Virus genome (UHGV): UHGV-1357462
Reading direction: 5' to 3' (one strand)
From: a virus
Length of the DNA stretch: 11,525 bases
Numbering within the stretch: position 1 is the first letter of the stretch; each line of letters begins with the position of its first letter. Below the pieces are notes generated by a model. It had not been told where the DNA came from. It saw nothing but the letters and a program-made list of their open reading frames with translations, and searched no databases. This document shows, piece by piece, positions 1-10,417 of this stretch. Both the position numbers and the translations under genes were made by a program.

Positions 1-786
1 CTGATTGACTGTGCAGCCGAACCGACACAGTTTAACGGACGATCGCTGGTACAGATTGCGCAGGCGCTTGCTGCGCCTTTCGGCATTGAGGTGGTGAACA
101 ACAGTGCGCCGTCGGGTGTTATTCCTGATGTCCAGCCTGATCACGGCGAAACGGTGATTGAGGTGATCAACAAAATACTCGGTCAGCAGCAGGCACTGGC
201 TTACGACGACCCGCACGGCAGGCTGGTGATTGGCGGTATTGGCTCAACGCGGGCACATACCGCGCTGGTACTTGGGGAAAACATCCTTTCCTGTGATACG
301 GAGAAGAGTATCCGGGAGCGGTTTTCAGTTTACCAGGTGGCGGGGCAGCGTGCCGGAAACGACGATGATTTCGGTGAGGCCACCACCACCGCGCTGCGGG
401 CCCGCACAGAGGACGCATTTATTGCCCGTTACCGTCCGATGTATATCAGGCAGACAGGGCAGGCCACGGGGGCAGGCTGTATTGCCCGTGCGGACTTTGA
501 AGCCCGACAACGGGCGGCGCGGACGGATGAAACCACCTATGTGGTGCAGGGATGGCGACAGGGTAACGGTACGCTGTGGCAGCCCAACCAGCGGGTGATT
601 GTCTTCGATCCGGTCTGTGGTTTCGACAATACCGAACTGCTTGTCTCGGAAGTCACGTTTACTCAGGACCAGAACGGCACCCTGACGGAAATCCGTGTCG
701 GCCCACCTGATGCTTATCTGCCTGAACCCGAAGCCCCCGGCGCGCGGAAAAAGAAAAAAGCCAGAGTACAGGAGGACCCGTTCTGA
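1..786 (+). CDS. Baseplate hub / tail protein, P2 gpD (late control D) - Mu P-like; 5'-partial, the frame is open from position 1
   Basis: Frame 1 has no stop from nt 1 to the TGA at 784-786; the 91 start in the ORF track is a GTG inside a longer gene. Its position directly upstream of a gpV-like spike gene and its overlap with it (TGATG at 784-788) match the Mu P-Q / P2 D-V order. Family assignment is from recalled similarity, not a search. Confidence 0.6.
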   Translation: MIDCAAEPTQFNGRSLVQIAQALAAPFGIEVVNNSAPSGVIPDVQPDHGETVIEVINKILGQQQALAYDDPHGRLVIGGIGSTRAHTALVLGENILSCDTEKSIRERFSVYQVAGQRAGNDDDFGEATTTALRARTEDAFIARYRPMYIRQTGQATGAGCIARADFEARQRAARTDETTYVVQGWRQGNGTLWQPNQRVIVFDPVCGFDNTELLVSEVTFTQDQNGTLTEIRVGPPDAYLPEPEAPGARKKKKARVQEDPF

Positions 787-1334
787 TGAGGACGATTGAA
801 GCCATGCAGCGACAACTCCTCGGCCTGATTGGGCGGGCTGTGGTGAAAAGCATCAGTGCCGCCACGAAATGTCAGACCGTGGATGTGTCCCTGATTGCCG
901 GTGAACCCAAAGCCGGGGTTGAACATCTTGAACCCTACGGTTTTACCGCAAGGGCAAACAGCGGTGCGGAAGCGGTGGTGTTGTTTCCGGATGGCGACCG
1001 TTCTCATGCGGTGGTTGTTACGGTGTCGGACCGGCGCTACCGCCTGAAAGGGCTGCAGACGGGTGAGGTGGCTGTCTATGACGATCAGGGGCAGTCCGTG
1101 ACGCTGACCCGGGAGGGGATCGTGGTGGACGGTGCAGGTAAGACGATCACGTTTCGCAATGCGCCCAGAGCACGTTTTGAAATGGACCTGGAAGTGACCG
1201 GACAGGTGAAAGACCTGTGCGACTCCGGCGGCACCACCATGTCAGCGATGCGGCTTGCCTATAACGGGCATCGTCACAGAGAGAACGGTCAGGGCAGTAA
1301 CACCGATAAACCTGATAAAGCGATGGAGGCATGA
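786..1334 (+). CDS. Baseplate spike / assembly protein V-like (P2 gpV, Mu gp45)
   Basis: 182-codon ORF whose ATG at 786 overlaps the upstream stop; its size and position between the hub gene and the GP46/J genes fit the conserved baseplate order. Confidence 0.65.
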   Translation: MRTIEAMQRQLLGLIGRAVVKSISAATKCQTVDVSLIAGEPKAGVEHLEPYGFTARANSGAEAVVLFPDGDRSHAVVVTVSDRRYRLKGLQTGEVAVYDDQGQSVTLTREGIVVDGAGKTITFRNAPRARFEMDLEVTGQVKDLCDSGGTTMSAMRLAYNGHRHRENGQGSNTDKPDKAMEA

Positions 1335-1759
1335 TGGAACTGTGGCTGACGGTGAACGGTAAACGCACCTGCGCCAGCTCACCGCTGGATCCGCTGACCC
1401 GCGCCGTGGTGATTTCCCTGTTCACCTGGCGGCGGGCGGAGCCTGATGACAATGCCGACGTCCCGATGGGATGGTGGGGGGATACCTGGCCTGCGGTACA
1501 GAATGACCGTTACGGCTCCCGACTGTGGCTGCTTCAGCGCAGCAAACTGACCAATCAGCTGGTGCAGACGGTAAGGGGGTATATCCGCGAATGCCTGCAA
1601 TGGATGATTGATGACGGCGTGGTGTCCCGTATTGATCTGGATATCCGCCGCACCGGGATTAATGAGCTGGGTAACAGTATCACCCTCTGGCGTCGTGACG
1701 GACCGGTAATGATTTCTTTTGATGATCTGTGGAGTGCGATAACGCATGGCGGACAGTGA
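1331..1759 (+). CDS. Baseplate protein, phage GP46 family (Mu gp46-like)
   Basis: 142-codon ORF overlapping the upstream stop (ATGATGG). GGAGG at 1325-1329 is better spaced for the second ATG at 1334, so the true start may be 1334. Position between V-like and J-like genes. Confidence 0.55.
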   Translation: MMELWLTVNGKRTCASSPLDPLTRAVVISLFTWRRAEPDDNADVPMGWWGDTWPAVQNDRYGSRLWLLQRSKLTNQLVQTVRGYIRECLQWMIDDGVVSRIDLDIRRTGINELGNSITLWRRDGPVMISFDDLWSAITHGGQ

Positions 1760-2804
1760 ATTTCAGCGCCCGACGCTGGCAGAAAATATCAGTATGCTCC
1801 GTAACGATTTATTCGCCAGGCTGGACGTCAGCGACACGCTCCGGCGCATGGATGAAGACGTGCGGGCAAAGGTGTATGCGGCGGCGCTGCATACGGTTTA
1901 CGGGTACATCGATTATCTGGCAATGAACATGCTGCCTGACCTGTGCGATGAGTCCTGGCTGGCGCGACATGCTGCGATGAAACGGTGTCCGCGCAAGGGG
2001 GCCACGGCTGCCAGCGGGTATATGCGCTGGGAAGGTGTCAGCGATGGCCTGAAGGTGACTGCCGGGAGTGTTATTCAGCGCGATGACCTGGTTCAGTACA
2101 CGGCAACTGCCGATGCAACCAGCTCCGGTGGTGTCCTGCGCGTGCCGATCGCCTGCTCAAGTGCAGGCGCGGTCGGTAACGCTGACGACGGTACGTCATT
2201 AATCCTGGTCACGCCGGTTAATGGTCTGCCGTCTTCCGGCGTGGCAGATACCCTGACAGGTGGATTTGATACTGAAGAGCTGGAAACGTGGCGCGCCCGC
2301 GTCATTGAGCGATATTACTGGACGCCTCAGGGCGGGGCTGACGGGGACTATGTCGTCTGGGCTAAAGAAGTGCCCGGCATTACCCGCGCATGGACATACC
2401 GTCACTGGATGGGAACGGGAACTGTCGGTGTGATGATTGCCAGCAGTGACCTGATTAATCCCATTCCGGAAGAATCAACGGAAACGGCGGCAAGACAACA
2501 CATTGAGCCACTGGCCCCGGTGGCAGGCTCTGATTTGTATGTATTCAGGCCGGTGGCACATACGGTGGATTTTCATATCCGCGTGACGCCGGACACACCA
2601 GAAATACGGGCTGCCATTACCGCGGAGTTGCGTTCGTTCCTGCTGCGTGATGGTTATCCGCAGGGAGAACTGAAGGTATCGCGTATCAGTGAGGCGATTT
2701 CCGGTGCGAACGGGGAATACAGCCATCAGTTGCTTGCACCGGTGGACAATATCTCCATTGCGAAAAATGAGCTGGCGGTTCTGGGGACGATTTCATGGAC
2801 GTGA
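1746..2804 (+). CDS. Baseplate J-like protein (Mu gp47 / P2 gpJ family)
   Basis: 352-codon ORF whose ATG at 1746 overlaps the end of the previous gene (translational coupling). Size and conserved position match baseplate wedge protein J. Confidence 0.75.
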
Positions 2805-3379
2805 CAAACGATGATTACATCCGCCTGTTATCGGCACTGTTGCCGCCCGGTCCTGCATGGTCAGCCAGCGATCCGGCGATTGCCGGTGCGGCACCTTCAT
2901 TAACCCGCGTTCATCAGCGTGCGGATGCTCTGATGCGGGAGCTTGATCCGCGCACCACCACCGAGCTGATAAATCGCTGGGAGCGTCTGTGTGGCCTGCC
3001 GGATGAATGTATTCCCGCAGGGACACAGACCCTTCGCCAGCGTCAGCAACGGCTGGATGCGAAGGTTAACCTGGCGGGTGGCATCAACGAGGATTTTTAT
3101 CTTGCACAGCTTGCTGCCCTGGGCAGACCAGATGCCACCATCACGCGATACGACAAAAGCACGTTCACCTGCTCATCGGCCTGTACTGACGCTGTGAATG
3201 CGCCGGAATGGCGGTATTACTGGCAGGTCAACATGCCAGCCGCCACCAACACCACCTGGATGACATGTGGCGATCCCTGTGATTCCGCGCTGCGTATCTG
3301 GGGCGACACCGTTGTCGAGTGTGTGCTTAACAAACTCTGCCCGTCGCATACCTACGTAATTTTTAAATATCCGGAGTAA
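2795..3379 (+). CDS. Tail/baseplate protein, Mu gp48 / e14 YmfQ-like (DUF2313-type)
   Basis: 194-codon ORF overlapping baseplate J by 10 nt, located immediately before the tail-fibre gene as in Mu and e14; has the N-terminal LLPPGPAW segment I associate with this family. Confidence 0.55.
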
Positions 3380-3382
3380 TCC

Positions 3383-4129
3383 ATGCATCGTATAGACACG
3401 AAAACCGCGCAGAAGGATAAGTTCGGCGCGGGTAAGAACGGTTTTACCCGTGGTAACCCCCAGACAGGCACGCCTGCCACCGATCTGGATGATGACTACT
3501 TTGACATGTTGCAGGAAGAACTCTGCAGCGTGGTGGAGGCATCCGGTGCCAGTCTGGAGAAGGCGCGGCACGACCAACTGCTTACCGCGCTTCGTGCGCT
3601 GCTGTTAAGCCGCAAGAATCCGTTTGGCGATATCAAATCGGATGGCACGGTGAAAACGGCTCTCGAAAACCTTGGTTTGGGAGAAGGTGCTCCAGCTATT
3701 GGCGTTCCGTTCTTCTGGCCGTCCGCTGCAATGCCAAATACTGTAATCGACAGCTGGTCCAGTATGGTGTTTTTGAAGTTCAACGGCGCGAAATTCTCTG
3801 CCACTGATTATCCTGTGCTGGCGAAAGTGTTTCCTTCGCTGGTATTACCTGAAGCCCGCGGTGATTTCATTCGTATCTGGGATGACGGGCGAGGTGCAGA
3901 CGGTGGTCGCGAATTATTAAGCTGGCAGGAAGCTACAAACTTTTCTCAGTTTGCCGGGAATATAGGCGGAGGTGCGGGACACGCAATTAACTTTCATGAT
4001 GGCATCGCCGGAAATCAGCCAGGATTTTCACGATTTAATTTCACCAGTAACTCTGTGGGTGATGGTGTGAATTTTGTTGCTGTCAGACCGCGAAATATTG
4101 CATTTAACTTTCTGGTGAGGGCTAAATAA
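3383..4129 (+). CDS. Tail fibre protein: constant N-terminal part (3383-3672) fused to the currently expressed variable C-terminal part (3673-4129)
   Basis: GGAGT RBS at 3372-3376 and ATG at 3383. A 26-bp invertase crossover site lies inside the gene at 3660-3685. The stop TAA overlaps the ATG of the downstream assembly gene. The N-terminus resembles e14/Mu-type side tail fibre proteins. Confidence 0.8.
3660..3685. repeat. Invertase crossover site (pix/gix-like), left copy, inside the tail-fibre gene
   Basis: TTCTCGAAAACC-TT-GGTTTGGGAGAA: two imperfect 12-bp half-sites around a 2-bp core. 3672-3686 is a perfect 15-bp inverted repeat of 5464-5478, and 22 of 26 positions match the inverted right-hand site. 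Confidence 0.7.
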
Positions 4130-4722
4130 TGAAACCTGTTTTTGATGAAAATGGGCTGGCTACAGTGCCGGGCGATATGCGTTGTTTTTATTATGATGCT
4201 GAAACATCTGAGTATACGGGCTGGTCTGATGAATATATTAATACTGGCGTAAGTATGCCCGCCTGTTCCACTGGTATTGACCCGGGCGAAAACATTCCGG
4301 GGAAAGTGGCAGTATTTACGGGTAAGGGATGGAGCCATGAAGAAGACCATCGCAATGAGACTGTTTACTCAACAGAAAATGGCGCAGCTGTTACAGTGGA
4401 TTATATCGGTGCCATCAAAGACGGTTATGTCACGCTTTCACCGTTAACGCCATACGATAAATGGGATGGTGAGAAATGGGTGACGGATACCGAGGCACAG
4501 CATAGCGCCGCAGTAGACGCGGCAGAAGCACAACGTCAGTCACTGATTGATACTGCAATGGCTTCCATTAGTCTGATTCAACTGAAATTGCAGGCCGGAC
4601 GGAAACTGACGCAGGCAGAAACAACCCGACTTAACGCCGTGCTGGATTACATTGACGCGGTGACGGTAACAGATACCAGCACCGCGCCGGATATCATCTG
4701 GCCTGAACTGCCGGAGGCGTAG
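4129..4722 (+). CDS. Tail fibre assembly protein (Tfa / Mu U-like)
   Basis: 197-codon ORF whose start overlaps the tail-fibre stop (TAATG). Its 3' end overlaps the convergent tfa' gene; the C-terminal motif ...TSTAPDIIWPELP mirrors ...TSSAPDIEWPTPP in the - strand paralogue. Confidence 0.75.
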   Translation: MKPVFDENGLATVPGDMRCFYYDAETSEYTGWSDEYINTGVSMPACSTGIDPGENIPGKVAVFTGKGWSHEEDHRNETVYSTENGAAVTVDYIGAIKDGYVTLSPLTPYDKWDGEKWVTDTEAQHSAAVDAAEAQRQSLIDTAMASISLIQLKLQAGRKLTQAETTRLNAVLDYIDAVTVTDTSTAPDIIWPELPEA

Positions 4723-5113
4723 GCCATTCAATATCTGGCGCACTGGAAGTATCGACCAGCTCCAGTGCGTCCAGATAATCCAGCCACAAATTATATTGCG
4801 CCAGTTCCTCACCTTTCAGACGACCAATAGCCGCTTTACCAGGCCATTGCCTGCTGTTCATGTGCTCGTTGGCTTCATTAATAAGTTTTCCTTTTTTCAA
4901 CTCTGCCAATGCAATAAGGTTTTCTTTTGATAAAGGTGGTTGCTCTGTCAAAACCGGATATCCCTCCTGATTGCTGACTATTTTCATGCCATTATCCTGA
5001 CCATCCAGTAGTGACAGCCATTCATCCGTGGTTATCTCAACAGCATCTGAAGGTGCTTTATTTAAATCGGTAAAAAAACCATTTTCTTTTTGTGAATAGA
5101 AGTATCTGTCCAT
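4694..5113 (-). CDS. Alternative tail fibre assembly protein (Tfa' / U'-like), silent in this orientation
   Basis: 139-codon ORF on the - strand, convergent with and overlapping the + strand tfa by 29 nt. It shares the C-terminal motif with the + strand Tfa and lies 3 nt downstream of the alternative fibre-tip ORF. Confidence 0.7.
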   Translation of the reverse strand: MDRYFYSQKENGFFTDLNKAPSDAVEITTDEWLSLLDGQDNGMKIVSNQEGYPVLTEQPPLSKENLIALAELKKGKLINEANEHMNSRQWPGKAAIGRLKGEELAQYNLWLDYLDALELVDTSSAPDIEWPTPPAVQAR

Positions 5114-5116
5114 TTA

Positions 5117-5518
5117 TCAATCTCCAAAAGCAATCCAGTAAGCAAAAGGATTTATTCCTTGCTCAGTCACAGATGACATCAGGGAAAATTGCGATGGTGA
5201 AACAGGTAATGCTGCAAAACTAACCATTGTTGACACACCTGACCGTGCATTATCGTACGATGCAACAACACAATAATTGGTATTGCTGAAAGATATCGGC
5301 AGGGTGATATTTACAGGTGAGCCTAATGGCCCTGATGCTGATATTCCCATTTGAATGATGGTTCCATCAGGCAATTTTCTCCAGCGATTAGAACTCGGAT
5401 TTCTTTTCCAGGCTGACATATCCGGTATCTGATTTTCTCCTGTGCCTACATCCCTTTTCGCCGCTTCTCCCAAACCAACGTTTATGAAAATGCAGAAATA
5501 ACGAGCAAATGGCATCAT
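5117..5518 (-). CDS. Alternative tail-fibre variable C-terminal segment (Sv'-like), lacking its own start in this orientation
   Basis: The - strand ORF spans the right crossover site. The encoded NVGLGEAAK across the site parallels NLGLGEGA at the left site in the expressed fibre. The ATG at 5518 lies outside the invertible segment and is probably not a real start; functional coding would be 5477 down to 5117 after inversion. Confidence 0.6.
   Translation of the reverse strand: MMPFARYFCIFINVGLGEAAKRDVGTGENQIPDMSAWKRNPSSNRWRKLPDGTIIQMGISASGPLGSPVNITLPISFSNTNYCVVASYDNARSGVSTMVSFAALPVSPSQFSLMSSVTEQGINPFAYWIAFGD
5465..5490. repeat. Invertase crossover site (pix/gix-like), right copy, just upstream of the invertase gene
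   Basis: TTCTCCCAAACC-AA-CGTTTATGAAAA: same 12-2-12 architecture as Hin/Gin/Cin/Pin sites, in inverted orientation relative to 3660-3685, with the core AA versus TT. Confidence 0.7.
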
Positions 5519-5544
5519 TCCTGCTTTTGTCAGGGAGATCTACC

Positions 5545-5901
5545 ATGCTTATTGGCTATGTACGTGTGTCAACAAATGACCAGAACACAGATCTACAGCG
5601 TAATGCGCTGAACTGTGCAGGATGCGAGCTGATTTTTGAAGACAAGATAAGCGGTACAAAGTCTGAAAGGCCGGGACTGAAAAAACTGCTCAGGACATTA
5701 TCGGAAGGTGACACTCTGGTTGTCTGGAAGCTGGATCGGCTGGGGCGTAGTATGCGGCATCTGGTCATTCTGGTTGAGGAGTTGCGCGAACGTGGCGTTA
5801 ATTTTCGCAGCCTAACGGATGCTATTGATATCAGCACGTCGATGGGGCGTTTTTTCTTTTATGTGATGGGGGCCTTGGCTGAAATTGAGTTTCAGGATTA
5901 A
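5545..5901 (+). pseudogene. pin: Pin/Gin/Hin-family serine DNA invertase, truncated: catalytic domain only, C-terminal HTH DNA-binding domain missing
   Basis: Starts MLIGYVRVSTNDQ (active-site Ser region) with AGGGAG upstream. Recalled similarity to e14 PinE runs to about codon 115 (…GALAEIE), then the frame ends after FQD at 5899-5901. Full-length invertases are about 185-190 aa. Neither of the other two frames downstream encodes a recognisable invertase C-terminus. Confidence 0.6.
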
Positions 5902-6061
5902 GCGATATCGTACTCACCCTTGGTCCCACCTAATAAATCTGAAGAACGGAAGCGCTGCCAGATGATGGTGGTGGCTACAATTATTCACACTCAATCTTCG
6001 GAGCAATCACGTACATCATAATGATGTTAGGAATACGGAGTTTAATGACTGTCCAGTGATG

Positions 6062-6091
6062 TAAAAAGAAACCCCGGCGTAGTAGCCGAGG
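6062..6091 (-). terminator. Rho-independent terminator downstream of the peptidase gene
   Basis: On the - strand: CCTCGGC-TACTAC-GCCGGGG (7-bp GC-rich stem with one G-U pair, 6-nt loop) followed by TTTCTTTTT, beginning about 25 nt after the stop. Confidence 0.55.
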
Positions 6092-6114
6092 TCCTCAATC
6101 AGAAACTACAATAT

Positions 6115-7119
6115 TCACTGAGTGCCTTCATCTGGTTGCTCTGCTGGTAAGGTTCCAGCCTCTTCTTCAGTTTCCGCATGTTTTCCATCGCCTCCCTGGA
6201 CAGGTTCATCCCTTGGCGGTTCTGCTCTTCCTGAATTTTGGTCAGAGATTTCATCTCCTTCCTGAATTCTGCTGTTGTCATGGGAATCTTCCTCTGCGTT
6301 AGTTGTTTCATATTGTTTTTTAGGAGTTAAATCTTTAATCATCGGTTTGTCGAAGATAGAGATTTCGCCTGACGAAATCATTTCACCAAGAACTTCGTAC
6401 AGGTTGGCTGCAAAATCTGTAGGACTCTCAACATGGTTGAATAGTTCCCTCGCCTCTTTACGGTCTATCACAAAACCATGGGCTGGATATCCAGCGATCA
6501 ACTTGCCTAATGAGCTTTCCTTAAGATTTTTCGAGTGACTATTCAAACGTTCCCCATAGGAAAGCGCTATGTTCATTGCTCGCTGATGCTCCCCGAGTTT
6601 GATAGGGTCTATCTGTGAGGCCATCGGCGATATGATTGCTTCAGTAAGCTTAGCAGCAATATCTGCAGACATCTTTGTGCTAATTTGGTTTCTGTACTTT
6701 ATATCAAGTACGTATGATCTAAAGGTCGAAATAGCGCACTCTTTTATTTCATCAATCGCCGTTGCGATAACAAGGCCCGAGCTCAATTCGCCGATCTCAT
6801 CATTTTTCTTAAGTTGGATATCTAGAGGGCCAAGCTCACCCATATCACCAATCACGAGCTTATGAGCGGCGACAGCCATCAATGTTCCAGCACTTTTGCA
6901 AGGGCCAACAACTAGAACGGTGATGTGCTCATAGTTGTGTTGCAAAGCGCGGCCAATTCTATATCCTGCGCTGGGATCACCGCCATAGGTAGCGACGCAA
7001 AAAAGAACATTTTTTTGTAAACCATGGTTAGTTTTTCTTTCTTTAATCGCTTTGGTGATGTCGTGATGACCAGAGCGGTGAACATCGCCTATGTATACGT
7101 AAACGTCTGTATCTTGCAT
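6115..7119 (-). CDS. ClpP/crotonase-fold serine peptidase (ClpP / S49 / SDH-like) with a long acidic C-terminal tail
   Basis: 334-codon ORF with AGGGA RBS. By eye the core aligns to ClpP: VATYGGDPSAGYRIGRALQ vs INSPGGVITAGMSIYDTMQ, and ITVLVVGPCKSAGTLMAVAAH vs [21 protein letters not shown], placing a Ser at the nucleophile position. The last 60 or so residues are D/E/G/P-rich. No His at the ClpP His position, so possibly a Ser-Lys dyad. Confidence 0.55.
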   Translation of the reverse strand: MQDTDVYVYIGDVHRSGHHDITKAIKERKTNHGLQKNVLFCVATYGGDPSAGYRIGRALQHNYEHITVLVVGPCKSAGTLMAVAAHKLVIGDMGELGPLDIQLKKNDEIGELSSGLVIATAIDEIKECAISTFRSYVLDIKYRNQISTKMSADIAAKLTEAIISPMASQIDPIKLGEHQRAMNIALSYGERLNSHSKNLKESSLGKLIAGYPAHGFVIDRKEARELFNHVESPTDFAANLYEVLGEMISSGEISIFDKPMIKDLTPKKQYETTNAEEDSHDNSRIQEGDEISDQNSGRAEPPRDEPVQGGDGKHAETEEEAGTLPAEQPDEGTQ

Positions 7120-7427
7120 TTTAATCCCTATGAATAAAATGGTTGAATTTAATGCTGTTCCTCAGCCAAAGCACTGTATCGATAACCAAAATACCTCAGA
7201 TTTGTCGAGAAAACTATCTGGAAAATTAGGCTAACTCTTTGAATCTTCGGAATGCAAAAAAGATAATTTCTCTGGATGGGCGCTAAGTTGATGTGTAAGT
7301 ATGACGGTTAGAACGGTCTCGGAAACCGCAGGCACGTCGTATGCAAGAACGTGCTGCGGCTGGCTGGCGAACTTTCGATAGTGCGAGTATTGAATGATTT
7401 CCAGCCGTTACCGATTTTACGTGTTAA

Positions 7428-7676
7428 TTAGTGAACAAACCACTCGTCAGCAGATTCCCAGGTATCTTTCAGAGTCTCCTGAACAAAAGTTTTTGCAGAA
7501 TCCTTATCTGCGGTGCGTGTAACAGAAAGGCCATCGTTGCTGGTGGCTTTTACGATCACCTCTACATCGTCATAACGTTTACTGATGCGTCGGGTTAATT
7601 CTTCCTTTAACGCATCCACAGCACCGGTTGGCATTTTAGTCATTTTTTCTTTGGCTATGCAGATTTCAATACGCAT
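7428..7676 (-). CDS. dinI: DinI-family SOS-response protein (prophage-borne DinI homologue)
   Basis: 82 codons starting MRIEICIAK and ending …[17 protein letters not shown], closely matching recalled E. coli DinI (MRIEVTIAK…QETWESADDWFV). AGAGGGA RBS, and two LexA boxes in its promoter. Confidence 0.8.
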
Positions 7677-7689
7677 AAAAGTCCCTCTA

Positions 7690-7709
7690 CACTGTGTTTG
7701 TATACAGTA
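7690..7709 (-). promoter_or_regulatory. LexA (SOS) box, promoter-proximal
   Basis: - strand TACTGTATACAAACACAGTG, i.e. CTGT-N8-ACAG with flanking TA, close to the consensus TACTGT(AT)4ACAGTA; about 14 nt upstream of the dinI-like start and overlapping the predicted transcript start region. Confidence 0.7.
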
Positions 7710-7712
7710 TTA

Positions 7713-7741
7713 TTTTTAACTGTATGAATAAACAGTGTCAA
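7713..7741 (-). promoter_or_regulatory. Sigma70-type promoter for the dinI-like gene
   Basis: - strand TTGACA (7741-7736), 17-nt spacer, TAAAAA (7718-7713). Perfect -35 and acceptable -10, with both LexA boxes placed for repression. Confidence 0.5.
7718..7737 (-). promoter_or_regulatory. Second LexA (SOS) box, in the -35/-10 spacer
   Basis: - strand CACTGTTTATTCATACAGTT, CTGT-N8-ACAG, immediately abutting the -35 hexamer. Confidence 0.65.
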
Positions 7742-7760
7742 TAGAACAAAGATTGCTGCA

Positions 7761-8178
7761 TGTACAAATGTTCTTTGGCTACAAATACACCTACTGATCA
7801 TGTTCTGCTATGCTCTGATACCTCCAAAATGTACAATCAGCGGCATGAATTTTTCTTTGTACATATGATTGTACATAATTAAAGAGACAACAATTATGAC
7901 AAGCCTTTTGGCCGCAGAGGTAGCGAAAAGAAGAACCTTTGCAATTATTTCTCACCCCAATAATTAAGTCCAAATTAAAGCTCTTTTACTCTTTCAAAAT
8001 CCTTTCAGTTAATTGAAGTTGAGCTATATAACTCATTTAAATACATTTGTTTATGTAGCTTCTTTAATTGAAAACTCTTTCATGTAACTTTAAATCGATC
8101 AGCTTGCTTTCATCAAAAACCTGTACATATGCTTGTACATAATGTACAAAACAGCAGAGGTGTTTTGCGATTTGTACA
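7761..8178. repeat. AT-rich array of eight TGTACA(W)A motifs including a 22-bp direct repeat; candidate integrase arm sites / attP or operator array
   Basis: TGTACA at 7761, 7830, 7858, 7870, 8122, 8134, 8143 and 8173. The 22-mers at 7858-7879 (TGTACATATGATTGTACATAAT) and 8122-8143 (TGTACATATGCTTGTACATAAT) match at 21 of 22 positions. Sits between the dinI promoter and the integrase start. Confidence 0.6.
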
Positions 8179-8187
8179 AGGTGAGTA

Positions 8188-9411
8188 ATGGCGCTGTCTG
8201 ATGCGTGGTTGCGTTCAGTCGTTGGAAAGGAACGTGATAAGGTTTTGGTTAAATCCGATCGTGATGGTCTGTCTGTCAGAGTATCACCGAAAGGTCGCGT
8301 AGTGTTCCAATATCGTTATCAATGGGCAGGGAAAGGTGAGCGTCTTGATATCGGAACTTACCCGGCAACTGGATTAAAAGAGGCCAGAGAAGAAGTTATC
8401 CGTCTTCGTGGTGAACTCGAGTCAAACCGTAATCCACGATTGGTCAAGCAGGCTGAAAAACGAAAAGCTACTGAAGCCATGACGGTAGAGTCTGTGATCC
8501 GTGCTTGGTATGAAGCATATTGTGTAAAAAATAAAAAAGGTTCTGAACAGATACTTCGCTCGTTTGAGCTGCACCTGTTCTCTAAAATCGGGAATATCCC
8601 TCACGATGCAGCTACATTGCATGATTGGTTAGAAGTCCTGGAGCCTCTTAGCACTAAGACTCCAGCAATAGCAGACCGATTGCTAATTAACGCAAAGCAG
8701 GCCCATGTCTGGGCGTATAAGAGAAAGCTCATTGAAACTCGCCCGCTGTCGGATATCACGGGTAAAGATATGGATATCCGTAAAGGTCAGAAGAAACGGT
8801 TTCTGACACATGATGAAATTAAAATCCTTTATGCTGCGATCGATGGTTCTCGAATGGTTCCTAAATACCGGGCCTTCATTAAACTATTGCTGCATTTTGG
8901 TTGCCGTAGTTCAGAGCTAATTACCGCCCGGGTGGACGATTTTGATTTCATTAATAAAGTATGGACTGTACCACCAGAACGACATAAGACAGGGGAGATA
9001 ACAGGCGAACCGCTAAAGCGGCCCATTATTGAACCGGTTGAAGAGCTTATAAAGTACGCTATCTCTATGAACAATGGTTCCGATATGCTTTTTACTAAGG
9101 AAGGAAGCAGGGAACCCGTTGGTCGGACATCATTGCAGTCGCTGCCTTACAATTTAATGCAGTACGCATGGCGGTGTTTAGGATATCAATTCCCTCATTG
9201 GTCTCTTCATGACTTGAGACGTACAGCTCGAACAAATTTTTCTGATCTTACTGCGCCTCATATCGCAGAAATTATGCTTGGTCATAAGCTGCCAGGGGTA
9301 TGGCAAGTTTATGATAAGAGCGATTATCTAGAAGAACAGCGTAAAGCTTACCTGGCATGGTGGAAGAGGGTTGAATCGATTGTTAATTGTACTATCTCTG
9401 ATTCAAACTGA
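8188..9411 (+). CDS. int: Tyrosine integrase, P4-type, with an N-terminal arm-binding (DUF4102-like) domain
   Basis: 407 codons with AAGGTGAG RBS. N-terminal …GLSVRVSPKGRVVFQYRY… is typical of P4-family integrases. Catalytic-domain hallmarks are present: LHFGCRSSEL (Arg), HDLRRTART (His-x-x-Arg) and LGHK…VYDKSDY (His and Tyr). Confidence 0.9.
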   Translation: MALSDAWLRSVVGKERDKVLVKSDRDGLSVRVSPKGRVVFQYRYQWAGKGERLDIGTYPATGLKEAREEVIRLRGELESNRNPRLVKQAEKRKATEAMTVESVIRAWYEAYCVKNKKGSEQILRSFELHLFSKIGNIPHDAATLHDWLEVLEPLSTKTPAIADRLLINAKQAHVWAYKRKLIETRPLSDITGKDMDIRKGQKKRFLTHDEIKILYAAIDGSRMVPKYRAFIKLLLHFGCRSSELITARVDDFDFINKVWTVPPERHKTGEITGEPLKRPIIEPVEELIKYAISMNNGSDMLFTKEGSREPVGRTSLQSLPYNLMQYAWRCLGYQFPHWSLHDLRRTARTNFSDLTAPHIAEIMLGHKLPGVWQVYDKSDYLEEQRKAYLAWWKRVESIVNCTISDSN

Positions 9412-9697
9412 CGGTTTGTATCACCTGAACATAACCAAATCTCCTAGCACACTTTGAGCGAGATGTGAGCGTTAAGTTTACGCCATTGTGTTGACATAAG
9501 AGGGGGGCGGGTATCGATATCATCACTATCCCTATGCCCCTAAATCGCTCCTGCCATTTGATAAATGCAGATGTTTACCACCAAATGTTTTTGATACTAT
9601 AGGTCGATTCATGATTTACCTAGAAACTTAGTTGTAACGAAAACTTCTTAACGGACACTATCTGGATAAAGTTAGTTTTTTATTTAAGAGGGTTAAC

Positions 9698-10417
9698 ATG
9701 TCAAAGTTAAAAAATGAACCATTAGTAAGGGTATCAGAAGAAGACGGAATAGAAATAAGGAAGATCCAATATCCAGATAATACGATAGAAAGAATTTATA
9801 AGCAGAAAGGTGTAATATTACCACGAATACCTTTAAAAGGCCGCTTTGTAGAACAATATGTGGCCTTACAGTTGCTTGATAAAGATCTTCGGAATGTTAT
9901 TGGTTGGGAGAATATAATAAAAAACATTTGTAATAACATTAATAAAGAACAACACTTTATTTATCCGGATTTAGAAAAGAATCTAATATTAAAGTCTTTA
10001 TTTATATCAAAAGTTGTTACTTACGGTAAGTGTTTTACAGAGGCGAAAGGGCGTCGATTCACATTGCAGAGAAAGCATGTGCCAGAAAAATACAGAGATT
10101 TACATGATTCTATTATGAATGTTAGACATAACTTTGCTGCCCATAAAGGTGAATTCGAATATGATCAATGTGGCTTGGTTTTAATATTGCCGGGGACCAA
10201 GAAGAAAAGGTACTATCATATTTTTTCAGAGCTCAATCAAATAAATTACGGTAATAATGAGGAAGATGATGAACGTTTTTTTATGTTATATGATTCACTG
10301 CGTGAAGTCATTAAAGAAAAACAAGATAAATTAATTGATAAAATATACGCTGAAAAGATTCATACTCAAACAATGGAGTATTGGTTGAGCCGAGCAGGAA
10401 AAGAAACAGAGATTTAA
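9698..10417 (+). CDS. Hypothetical protein, very AT-rich orphan cargo gene; weak HEPN-like R-x5-H motif (VRHNFAAH)
   Basis: 239 codons with a strong RBS (AAGAGGG, 10 nt before the ATG). Clearly lower G+C than all neighbours. No family recognised beyond an R-x5-H spacing compatible with the loose HEPN Rx4-6H signature. Sits between the integrase and the AlpA-like gene. Confidence 0.7.
   Translation: MSKLKNEPLVRVSEEDGIEIRKIQYPDNTIERIYKQKGVILPRIPLKGRFVEQYVALQLLDKDLRNVIGWENIIKNICNNINKEQHFIYPDLEKNLILKSLFISKVVTYGKCFTEAKGRRFTLQRKHVPEKYRDLHDSIMNVRHNFAAHKGEFEYDQCGLVLILPGTKKKRYYHIFSELNQINYGNNEEDDERFFMLYDSLREVIKEKQDKLIDKIYAEKIHTQTMEYWLSRAGKETEI

Follow-up and report, generated by a model that had tools for sequence, protein, structure and literature searches.

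The window, by which we mean the whole stretch of 11,525 nucleotides analysed here, carries a tail-fibre inversion switch in which both crossover sites and the reading frame across them are preserved and the adjacent invertase gene, pin', is truncated. Precise inversions between these sites were observed in the lineage of Escherichia coli prophages that shares the truncation. The explanation that we favour, and regard as probable, is that this orphaned cassette of the e14/Pin type still inverts through the action of invertases supplied from other places in the cell. From its layout and its sites, the cassette is of the e14 P-segment type within the Gin/Cin/Hin/Pin (Din) family, a known system and no new kind. 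The P segment and PinE of the cryptic prophage e14 of K-12 (stfP-tfaP-tfaE-stfE-pinE) were reportedly described by Plasterk and van de Putte in 1985.

Judged by its matches, the window derives from E. coli prophages. Its first 7,957 bp (positions 1-7957) match strain APEC E19025 at 99.99% identity, and the rest of the window, right of position 7957, corresponds to a second prophage. In E19025, the counterpart is the final part of an apparently complete prophage of ~38 kb located between yjjG and prfC, with an integrase gene followed by regulatory, lysis, head, sheath/tube and baseplate genes and then by the fibre. It is likely, on this comparison, that the cassette belongs to a temperate myovirus-like prophage, integrated at prfC of E. 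coli, and lies at its tail-fibre end. Baseplate genes occupy positions 91-3379 of the window, and an SDH-type protease gene (7119-6115, minus strand) and a dinI-like gene (7676-7428, minus strand) lie at its other side. In the public record of E19025, the fibre protein, identical to that of the window, is mislabelled as an 'integrase' by PGAP (RefSeq), and the cassette is otherwise unmarked.

The two crossover sites are an inverted pair of 26-bp, pix-type sequences, each composed of two imperfect 12-bp half-sites around a shared 2-bp core, as in other e14-type Din systems. The left site, located within the fibre coding sequence, reads CTCTCGAAAACC TT GGTTTGGGAGAA on the plus strand (3660-3685, central TT at 3672-3673), and the right site reads TTCTCCCAAACC AA CGTTTATGAAAA (5465-5490, central AA at 5477-5478). 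The repeat finder returned inverted arms of 20 nt with 1 mismatch (3667-3686 / 5464-5483), within which the perfect inverted run spans 15 nt (3672-3686 / 5464-5478). The inner half-sites mirror each other perfectly and the central dinucleotides agree (TT/AA), while the outer half-sites differ between the two sites, giving 21/26 matching positions overall. A 19-nt core pattern occurred exactly twice in the window versus 0 times in 200 shuffles, and a search of the window with a looser pattern found no third crossover site of the kind that would mark a multi-inversion system. Both sites are identical at 26/26 positions to the P-segment crossover sites of e14 in K-12 MG1655.

Between the sites lies a segment of ~1.8 kb that encodes a pair of alternative fibre tips and, for each tip, a separate assembly gene. 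Outside the segment, the constant N-terminal part of the tail-fibre gene covers ~97 codons (3383-3671, plus strand, from the ORF list) and is nearly identical to the N-terminus of K-12 StfP. It is 94.8-100% identical in all fetched relatives that retain it, in either orientation; it is absent from Z1323CEC0019, and the APEC O78 locus keeps only its last 94 nt. In the current orientation, the constant part is joined to tip A, of the StfE/StfP2 type, forming a fibre of 248 aa (3383-4129, plus strand). The partner of tip A, assembly gene A (197 aa, 4129-4722, plus strand), matches Pfam Caudo_TAP with E = 1.2e-27. Tail to tail with it lies a second Caudo_TAP gene (E = 2.3e-26), assembly gene B (139 aa, 4694-5113, minus strand), which is the partner of tip B and silent in the present orientation. 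Tip B itself is contained in an ORF of 133 aa (5117-5518, minus strand) and, on the inverted fibre, matches Pfam Gp53-like_C with E = 5e-13. The ATG and first codons of this ORF, which encode the leader MPFA.YF.IFINVGLGE ahead of the gp53-like domain, are outside the segment, as in the 'StfE2' architecture of K-12.

When positions 3672-5478 were reverse-complemented in silico, the fibre frame was kept. The junction, now ...LENLGLGE|GAPAIG..., became ...LENLGLGE|AAKRDVG..., the fibre changed from 248 aa to 216 aa, and assembly gene B came to lie directly after the fibre stop codon. The locus is thus a split fibre gene with alternative in-frame variable parts, each followed by its own tfa gene.

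The invertase gene next to the right site is a pseudogene (5545-5901, plus strand) composed of 115 pin codons and an added FQD-stop, as delimited by Pfam and by alignment to pinE. Homology to pinE stops at ~5888, at codon 115 of 184; in the retained part 316/345 nt are identical to K-12 pinE, and nucleotide identity to an intact pinE reaches 97.7%. The predicted product matches Pfam Resolvase positions 2-124 of 145, keeping Ser10 and most of the catalytic domain, and ends before the end of helix E, so that the entire HTH domain is gone. Pfam found no HTH_7 domain in pin', and thus no complete serine invertase beside the sites, while the full-length PinE of strain CEC12044, used as a control, returned both Resolvase and HTH_7. 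Since the DNA-binding domain is missing, the cassette's own invertase cannot perform the inversion; the cassette is, as its homology indicates, a family member by descent and no longer autonomous. Fused to the broken end of pin, at a deletion or recombination junction, is a fragment of an S24/LexA-type peptidase gene (5889-6064, plus strand, named from the PGAP annotation of identical sequence). These results bear out the structural part of the initial annotation, which had described a tail-fibre inversion switch, with the two tips and two assembly genes between the sites now seen to follow the e14 layout. Its intact crossover sites with a 15-nt perfect inverted core, its preserved frame and its invertase lacking a DNA-binding domain all held on re-analysis, and the end of the catalytic/oligomerisation helix proved to be missing as well.

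The part of pin that survives may still contribute to inversion. In Gin, Cin and Hin systems, the Fis-dependent enhancer is contained in the 5'-terminal part of the invertase gene. By homology of position, a putative recombinational enhancer stretch can be placed at 5566-5629 in the window, where two G...C 15-mers were observed (5566-5580 and 5615-5629; gene positions 22-36 and 71-85). Mu gin and K-12 pinE have their 15-mers at the same positions, and 96 bp separate the centre of the first one in the window from that of the right site. In the Hin system, the enhancer lies ~100 bp from a hix site (PMC3798978); the literature search returned this general Hin location rule and no stated Pin enhancer sequence. 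On positional grounds, the retained stretch may hold a functional enhancer. Given the intact sites and the intact 5' part of pin, where the Fis enhancer would be located, the cassette is expected to remain a good substrate.

To follow the truncated allele, complete E. coli genomes were searched with a 301-nt query that spans the junction, and 15 of the 19 matching loci were fetched. The identical junction is present in 19 complete genomes, in which PGAP labels pin' as 'incomplete; missing C-terminus', and every fetched locus continues from the junction into a common S24'-SDH protease-DinI-prfC neighbourhood. In 15/15 fetched loci, pin' also has four substitutions shortly ahead of the break (T96I, P99S, H106Y and M114I). 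The shared junction, neighbourhood and substitutions together indicate that the truncated allele arose once. The four substitutions were also considered as decay following the truncation, and this was rejected: the full-length e14 pinE of strain HS-02 has the same stretch, with 5 synonymous changes alongside. Two groups of genomes show further lesions in pin', namely an Arg7-to-Cys change in the conserved N-terminal YVRVS motif (L3Cip3, FORC_082 and 50EVAW) and a two-codon (6-nt) insertion (98207, FACU 2024 and CAVP746).

Both orientations of the segment were observed among these genomes. Of the 19, thirteen are window-like and five opposite, and the remaining one shows a rearrangement at the crossover point; an assembly records the majority orientation only, and these genomes give no switching rates. 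The window-like loci comprise nine that were fetched (E19025, 98207, CAVP746, 50EVAW, AMSHJX01, CDE6306, bR_120, 11PC and 118C_1) and four unfetched sister isolates of 98207, called window-like from their identical match pattern. The opposite orientation was found in FORC_082, FACU 2024, APEC O78, 23CRST011 and L3Cip3, the last of these degenerate, while Z1323CEC0019 has the rearranged locus, with the segment lost. In APEC O78, the same four modules as in the window and E19025 are present in inverted arrangement, with 18 differences in 1,807 nt, which makes E19025 and APEC O78 one of two pairs with opposite orientations.

The clearest comparison is provided by 98207 and FACU 2024. Uncorrected, the two sequences diverge from the first base past the repeat; after re-inversion between the site centres, they show 0 differences over 5,721 positions up to prfC. 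Covered by this identity are the constant region, the segment (1,852 bp), pin' including its private insertion of 6 nt, and what follows as far as prfC. Breakpoints inside the 15-20-nt repeat point to site-specific recombination as the obvious cause, and the separation of otherwise identical sequences by flips suggests a process faster than point mutation. Across the lineage, the 1,812 bp right of the truncation junction fall into two main haplotypes, and both orientations occur in each, which by parsimony implies at least three flips after the truncation. Both orientations, with breakpoints at the crossover sites, are thereby documented in relatives rather than in the source strain. A single orientation in all descendants of the inactivation, the pattern that would mark a locked switch, was not found among the 19 genomes. 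The proposal of the initial annotation, a 'probably fixed' element, is therefore not upheld and is unlikely to hold for this allele in general: 98207 and FACU 2024, both with the truncated allele, differ by a precise inversion alone.

With no functional invertase of its own, the cassette would depend on enzymes encoded by other prophages or plasmids in the same cell. A dimer of such a serine invertase would bind each 26-bp site, the two sites would synapse, cleavage would take place at the central 2 bp, and the 1.8-kb segment would be turned round, probably at a reduced rate. The inversion would exchange tip A and assembly gene A for tip B and assembly gene B behind the constant 97-codon N-terminus. 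Candidate enzymes were sought with the 5' 344 nt of pin (blastn, short words), which gave matches at 2-5 places on the chromosome of every one of the 19 genomes, the places being counted only. At least one further Din-type invertase homologue, intact or not, is therefore present in each genome. In FORC_082, an annotated full-length pinE cassette is located elsewhere in the genome. A chimeric query (the S24'-SDH part joined to the 3' HTH end of pinE), with which SDH protease homologues also count and whose 3' end is more divergent, found no second place in FACU 2024 and five other genomes.

Action of Din invertases in trans is documented in the literature. According to Kirigo et al., the e14 P segment is inverted at the same repeats by PinE as well as by PinQ/PinR (PMC12529663). 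Cited in the same paper are the inversion of the Hin segment by Fin of Fels-2 and of the Mu G segment and the Salmonella H segment by PinE. The action of Fin on the H segment of Salmonella LT2 and that of PinQ/PinR, of the Qin and Rac prophages, on e14 P resemble the situation proposed here in that the invertase comes from another prophage. They differ in that the cis invertase is intact there, whereas the window's cassette would be open to trans enzymes only. A fixed state 'unless a trans-acting invertase is present' was how the earlier claim had been worded, and this exception now appears to be the likelier situation. A further pin-like locus, intact or not, occurs in 19/19 genomes, and trans action is published for sites of exactly this type (PMC12529663). 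We infer that flipping of the window's cassette is the work of one or more such enzymes.

It is considerably less probable that the switch is effectively locked in the tip-A orientation without a cis invertase, and that the differences among relatives reflect very rare events of no ecological relevance. The loss of the HTH domain from pin' agrees with such a view, as do the prevalence of the window's orientation (13/19 truncated-allele genomes) and the uniform orientation of the five Alexandria isolates of the 98207 group. The best argument for it comes from K-12, where PCR showed a single orientation of the P segment after complete deletion of pinE, although pinQ and pinR were present on the chromosome (PMC12529663). 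However, that deletion also takes out the 5' part of pinE with the presumed enhancer, a stretch that the window's cassette retains. Against a locked state also stand the at least three independent flips among nearly identical loci, with 0-1 differences in the 1.8-kb flank, and the one flip that occurred without any point difference in 5.7 kb, a pattern that points away from rare accident. The rate in the source strain may nevertheless be low, and the switch may there be effectively locked on the time-scale of culture.

A different role for the cassette can be proposed with little confidence, namely that it is now kept by the host as a phase-variable anti-phage module rather than serving the phage as a host-range device. 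In the present orientation, the short ORF at 5518-5117 begins outside the segment and continues into the gp53-like tip, and its product could act like K-12 StfE2, which is described in PMC12529663 and reported to block T2 adsorption. Under such a scheme, the 5' pin stump would be kept for its Fis enhancer, and switching would be handed to the invertases of other prophages, for example PinQ/PinR induced by phage attack.

The opposite orientations could also have been brought in by homologous recombination, with cassettes replaced from e14-like prophages that have a working pin. The tip and assembly modules vary widely among the 19 loci, which speaks for frequent module exchange. In addition, the prophage ends of 98207 and FACU 2024 are identical while the adjoining prfC differs at 33 sites, which indicates that the region moves between backgrounds. 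Yet the difference between these two loci starts and stops inside the 20-nt repeat, the constant region, pin' and the private 6-nt insertion being identical, and a replacement donor would need identity in everything but orientation. The 15 perfect bp of the repeat are too short for efficient RecA recombination. We consider replacement improbable as the source of the two orientations. Least plausible, and very improbable, is catalysis by the truncated Pin' itself: H106Y, at the position of the activating H107Y of Hin (described as an activated mutant in PMC4817059), and M114I are both present, but Pin' has no DNA-binding domain, its oligomerisation helix is cut at residue 115, the sub-lineages with further damage (Arg7-to-Cys or the two-codon insertion) include both orientations, and the four substitutions are a natural allele shared with the full-length e14 pinE of HS-02.

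Inversion by invertases from elsewhere in the cell thus remains our preferred reading, and it is applied here to a cassette with close counterparts. The order ymfQ, fibre constant part, tip, tfa, inverted tfa, inverted tip and pin is that of e14 in K-12, and the window corresponds to the 'inverted' K-12 form, with a StfP2-type fibre and a StfE2-type ORF. Unlike in K-12, the pin of the window is cut at codon 115 and fused to the S24 peptidase fragment, the E19025 prophage is a 38-kb element at prfC rather than the e14 remnant at icd, and both tips are other alleles; the StfE2-type ORF (tip B) shares only 43/133 residues with K-12 StfE2, most of them in the leader. The G segment of Mu with Gin, as well as the C segment of P1 with Cin, is similarly built from a constant Sc and alternative Sv/U or Sv'/U' parts. 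In Mu, too, the invertase gene lies beside the right-hand site, with the enhancer in its 5' part, where the window has its putative counterpart, and Gin shares most of its catalytic-domain sequence with the window's Pin'. The Mu system differs in its 3 kb segment, its much longer fibre, its intact invertase and its gix sites, whose sequence (TTCCTGTAAACCGAGGTTTTGGATAA) is not that of the window's sites. Related cassettes whose invertases are intact were found in P2-like phages and in myoviruses induced from E. coli, for example vB_EcoM-606R2 (94.7% identity).

For the interpretation of such loci, a broken invertase beside an intact switch does not justify the conclusion that the phase is locked, since members of this invertase family cross-react and several of them are usually present in an E. 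coli genome. Should other prophages prove to drive the orphan switch, it would be a natural example of the cross-prophage control recently reported for e14. The biological stakes are modest: this would be an ordinary, known system whose switch has been orphaned but is still usable.

The 248-aa product encoded at window positions 3383-4129 (9084-9830 of the E19025 locus), WP_137544414.1, is named 'integrase' by RefSeq/PGAP in E19025 and CDE6306. Pfam gave no match for it; it is clearly the tail fibre, composed of the constant StfP N-terminus and a tip. The 'silent' tip on the minus strand at 5117-5518 is not an orphan fragment: it forms a predicted 133-aa ORF whose ATG lies outside the invertible segment. 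This arrangement is the same as that of K-12 StfE2, for which a block of phage T2 adsorption has been reported (PMC12529663).

Four substitutions, T96I, P99S, H106Y and M114I (window 5830-5888, codons 96-114), were common to all truncated pin alleles, with 15 of the 19 loci fetched. Relative to intact pinE, they cluster with five synonymous changes, all within the last 26 codons, and codons 1-89 carried no changes. H106 is equivalent to the residue changed in Hin H107Y, which is described as an activated mutant (PMC4817059). Decay was rejected as the origin of these substitutions, because a full-length e14 pinE in strain HS-02 contains the same substituted stretch. The stretch is accordingly either a naturally occurring allele or the end of a mosaic.

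Several relatives were rearranged, interrupted or degraded. In Z1323CEC0019 (locus positions 3200-3306, equivalent to window 5440-5545), the right crossover site's outer half-site (CGTTTATGAAAA) is precisely where homology to the window begins, and a truncated lambdoid gpU gene lies to the left of this start. Since the break falls at the crossover point, an invertase may have rearranged the locus by using a secondary site in another prophage. The APEC O78 relative, with its segment in the orientation opposite to the window, contains an IS2 element 69 bp right of the right crossover site and ahead of the pin' start (L010 1958-3300), which places 1.3 kb between this site and the presumed enhancer. 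Additionally, in L3Cip3 (L003 1190-1220 and 1888-3276) the left crossover site is degenerate, with a base change and a small deletion, and genes within the segment are frameshifted or partial. This cassette is decaying and is probably truly locked.

Downstream of pin', the right end of the prophage (5889-7676) encompasses part of an S24/LexA-type peptidase gene, an intact gene for a 334-aa SDH/ClpP-like serine protease (Pfam match weak, below cut-off) and a dinI-like gene. In each of the 19 genomes (15 of 19 loci fetched), these three come after pin'. Two further genomes, UTME-7 and GXU-23-25-310, matched the S24-SDH stretch of the junction query at ~97% and showed no match to its pin part. 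Furthermore, 98207 and FACU 2024 are identical at their prophage ends, whereas the adjacent prfC (positions 5722-7210 of the compared loci) differs at 33 positions, which suggests an exchange of either the prophage region or prfC between chromosomal backgrounds.

In region 7896-9411, beyond the dinI-like gene, the window reaches the first 62 nt of prfC and then enters a second prophage, whose first gene is an integrase (8188-9411) that is 95% identical to the E19025 prophage at its left end. Two related prophages thus lie in tandem at the prfC 5' attachment site, and the 42-nt overlap at 7916-7957 appears to be the att core. Beyond the window end, the second prophage could have a fibre switch and an invertase of its own.
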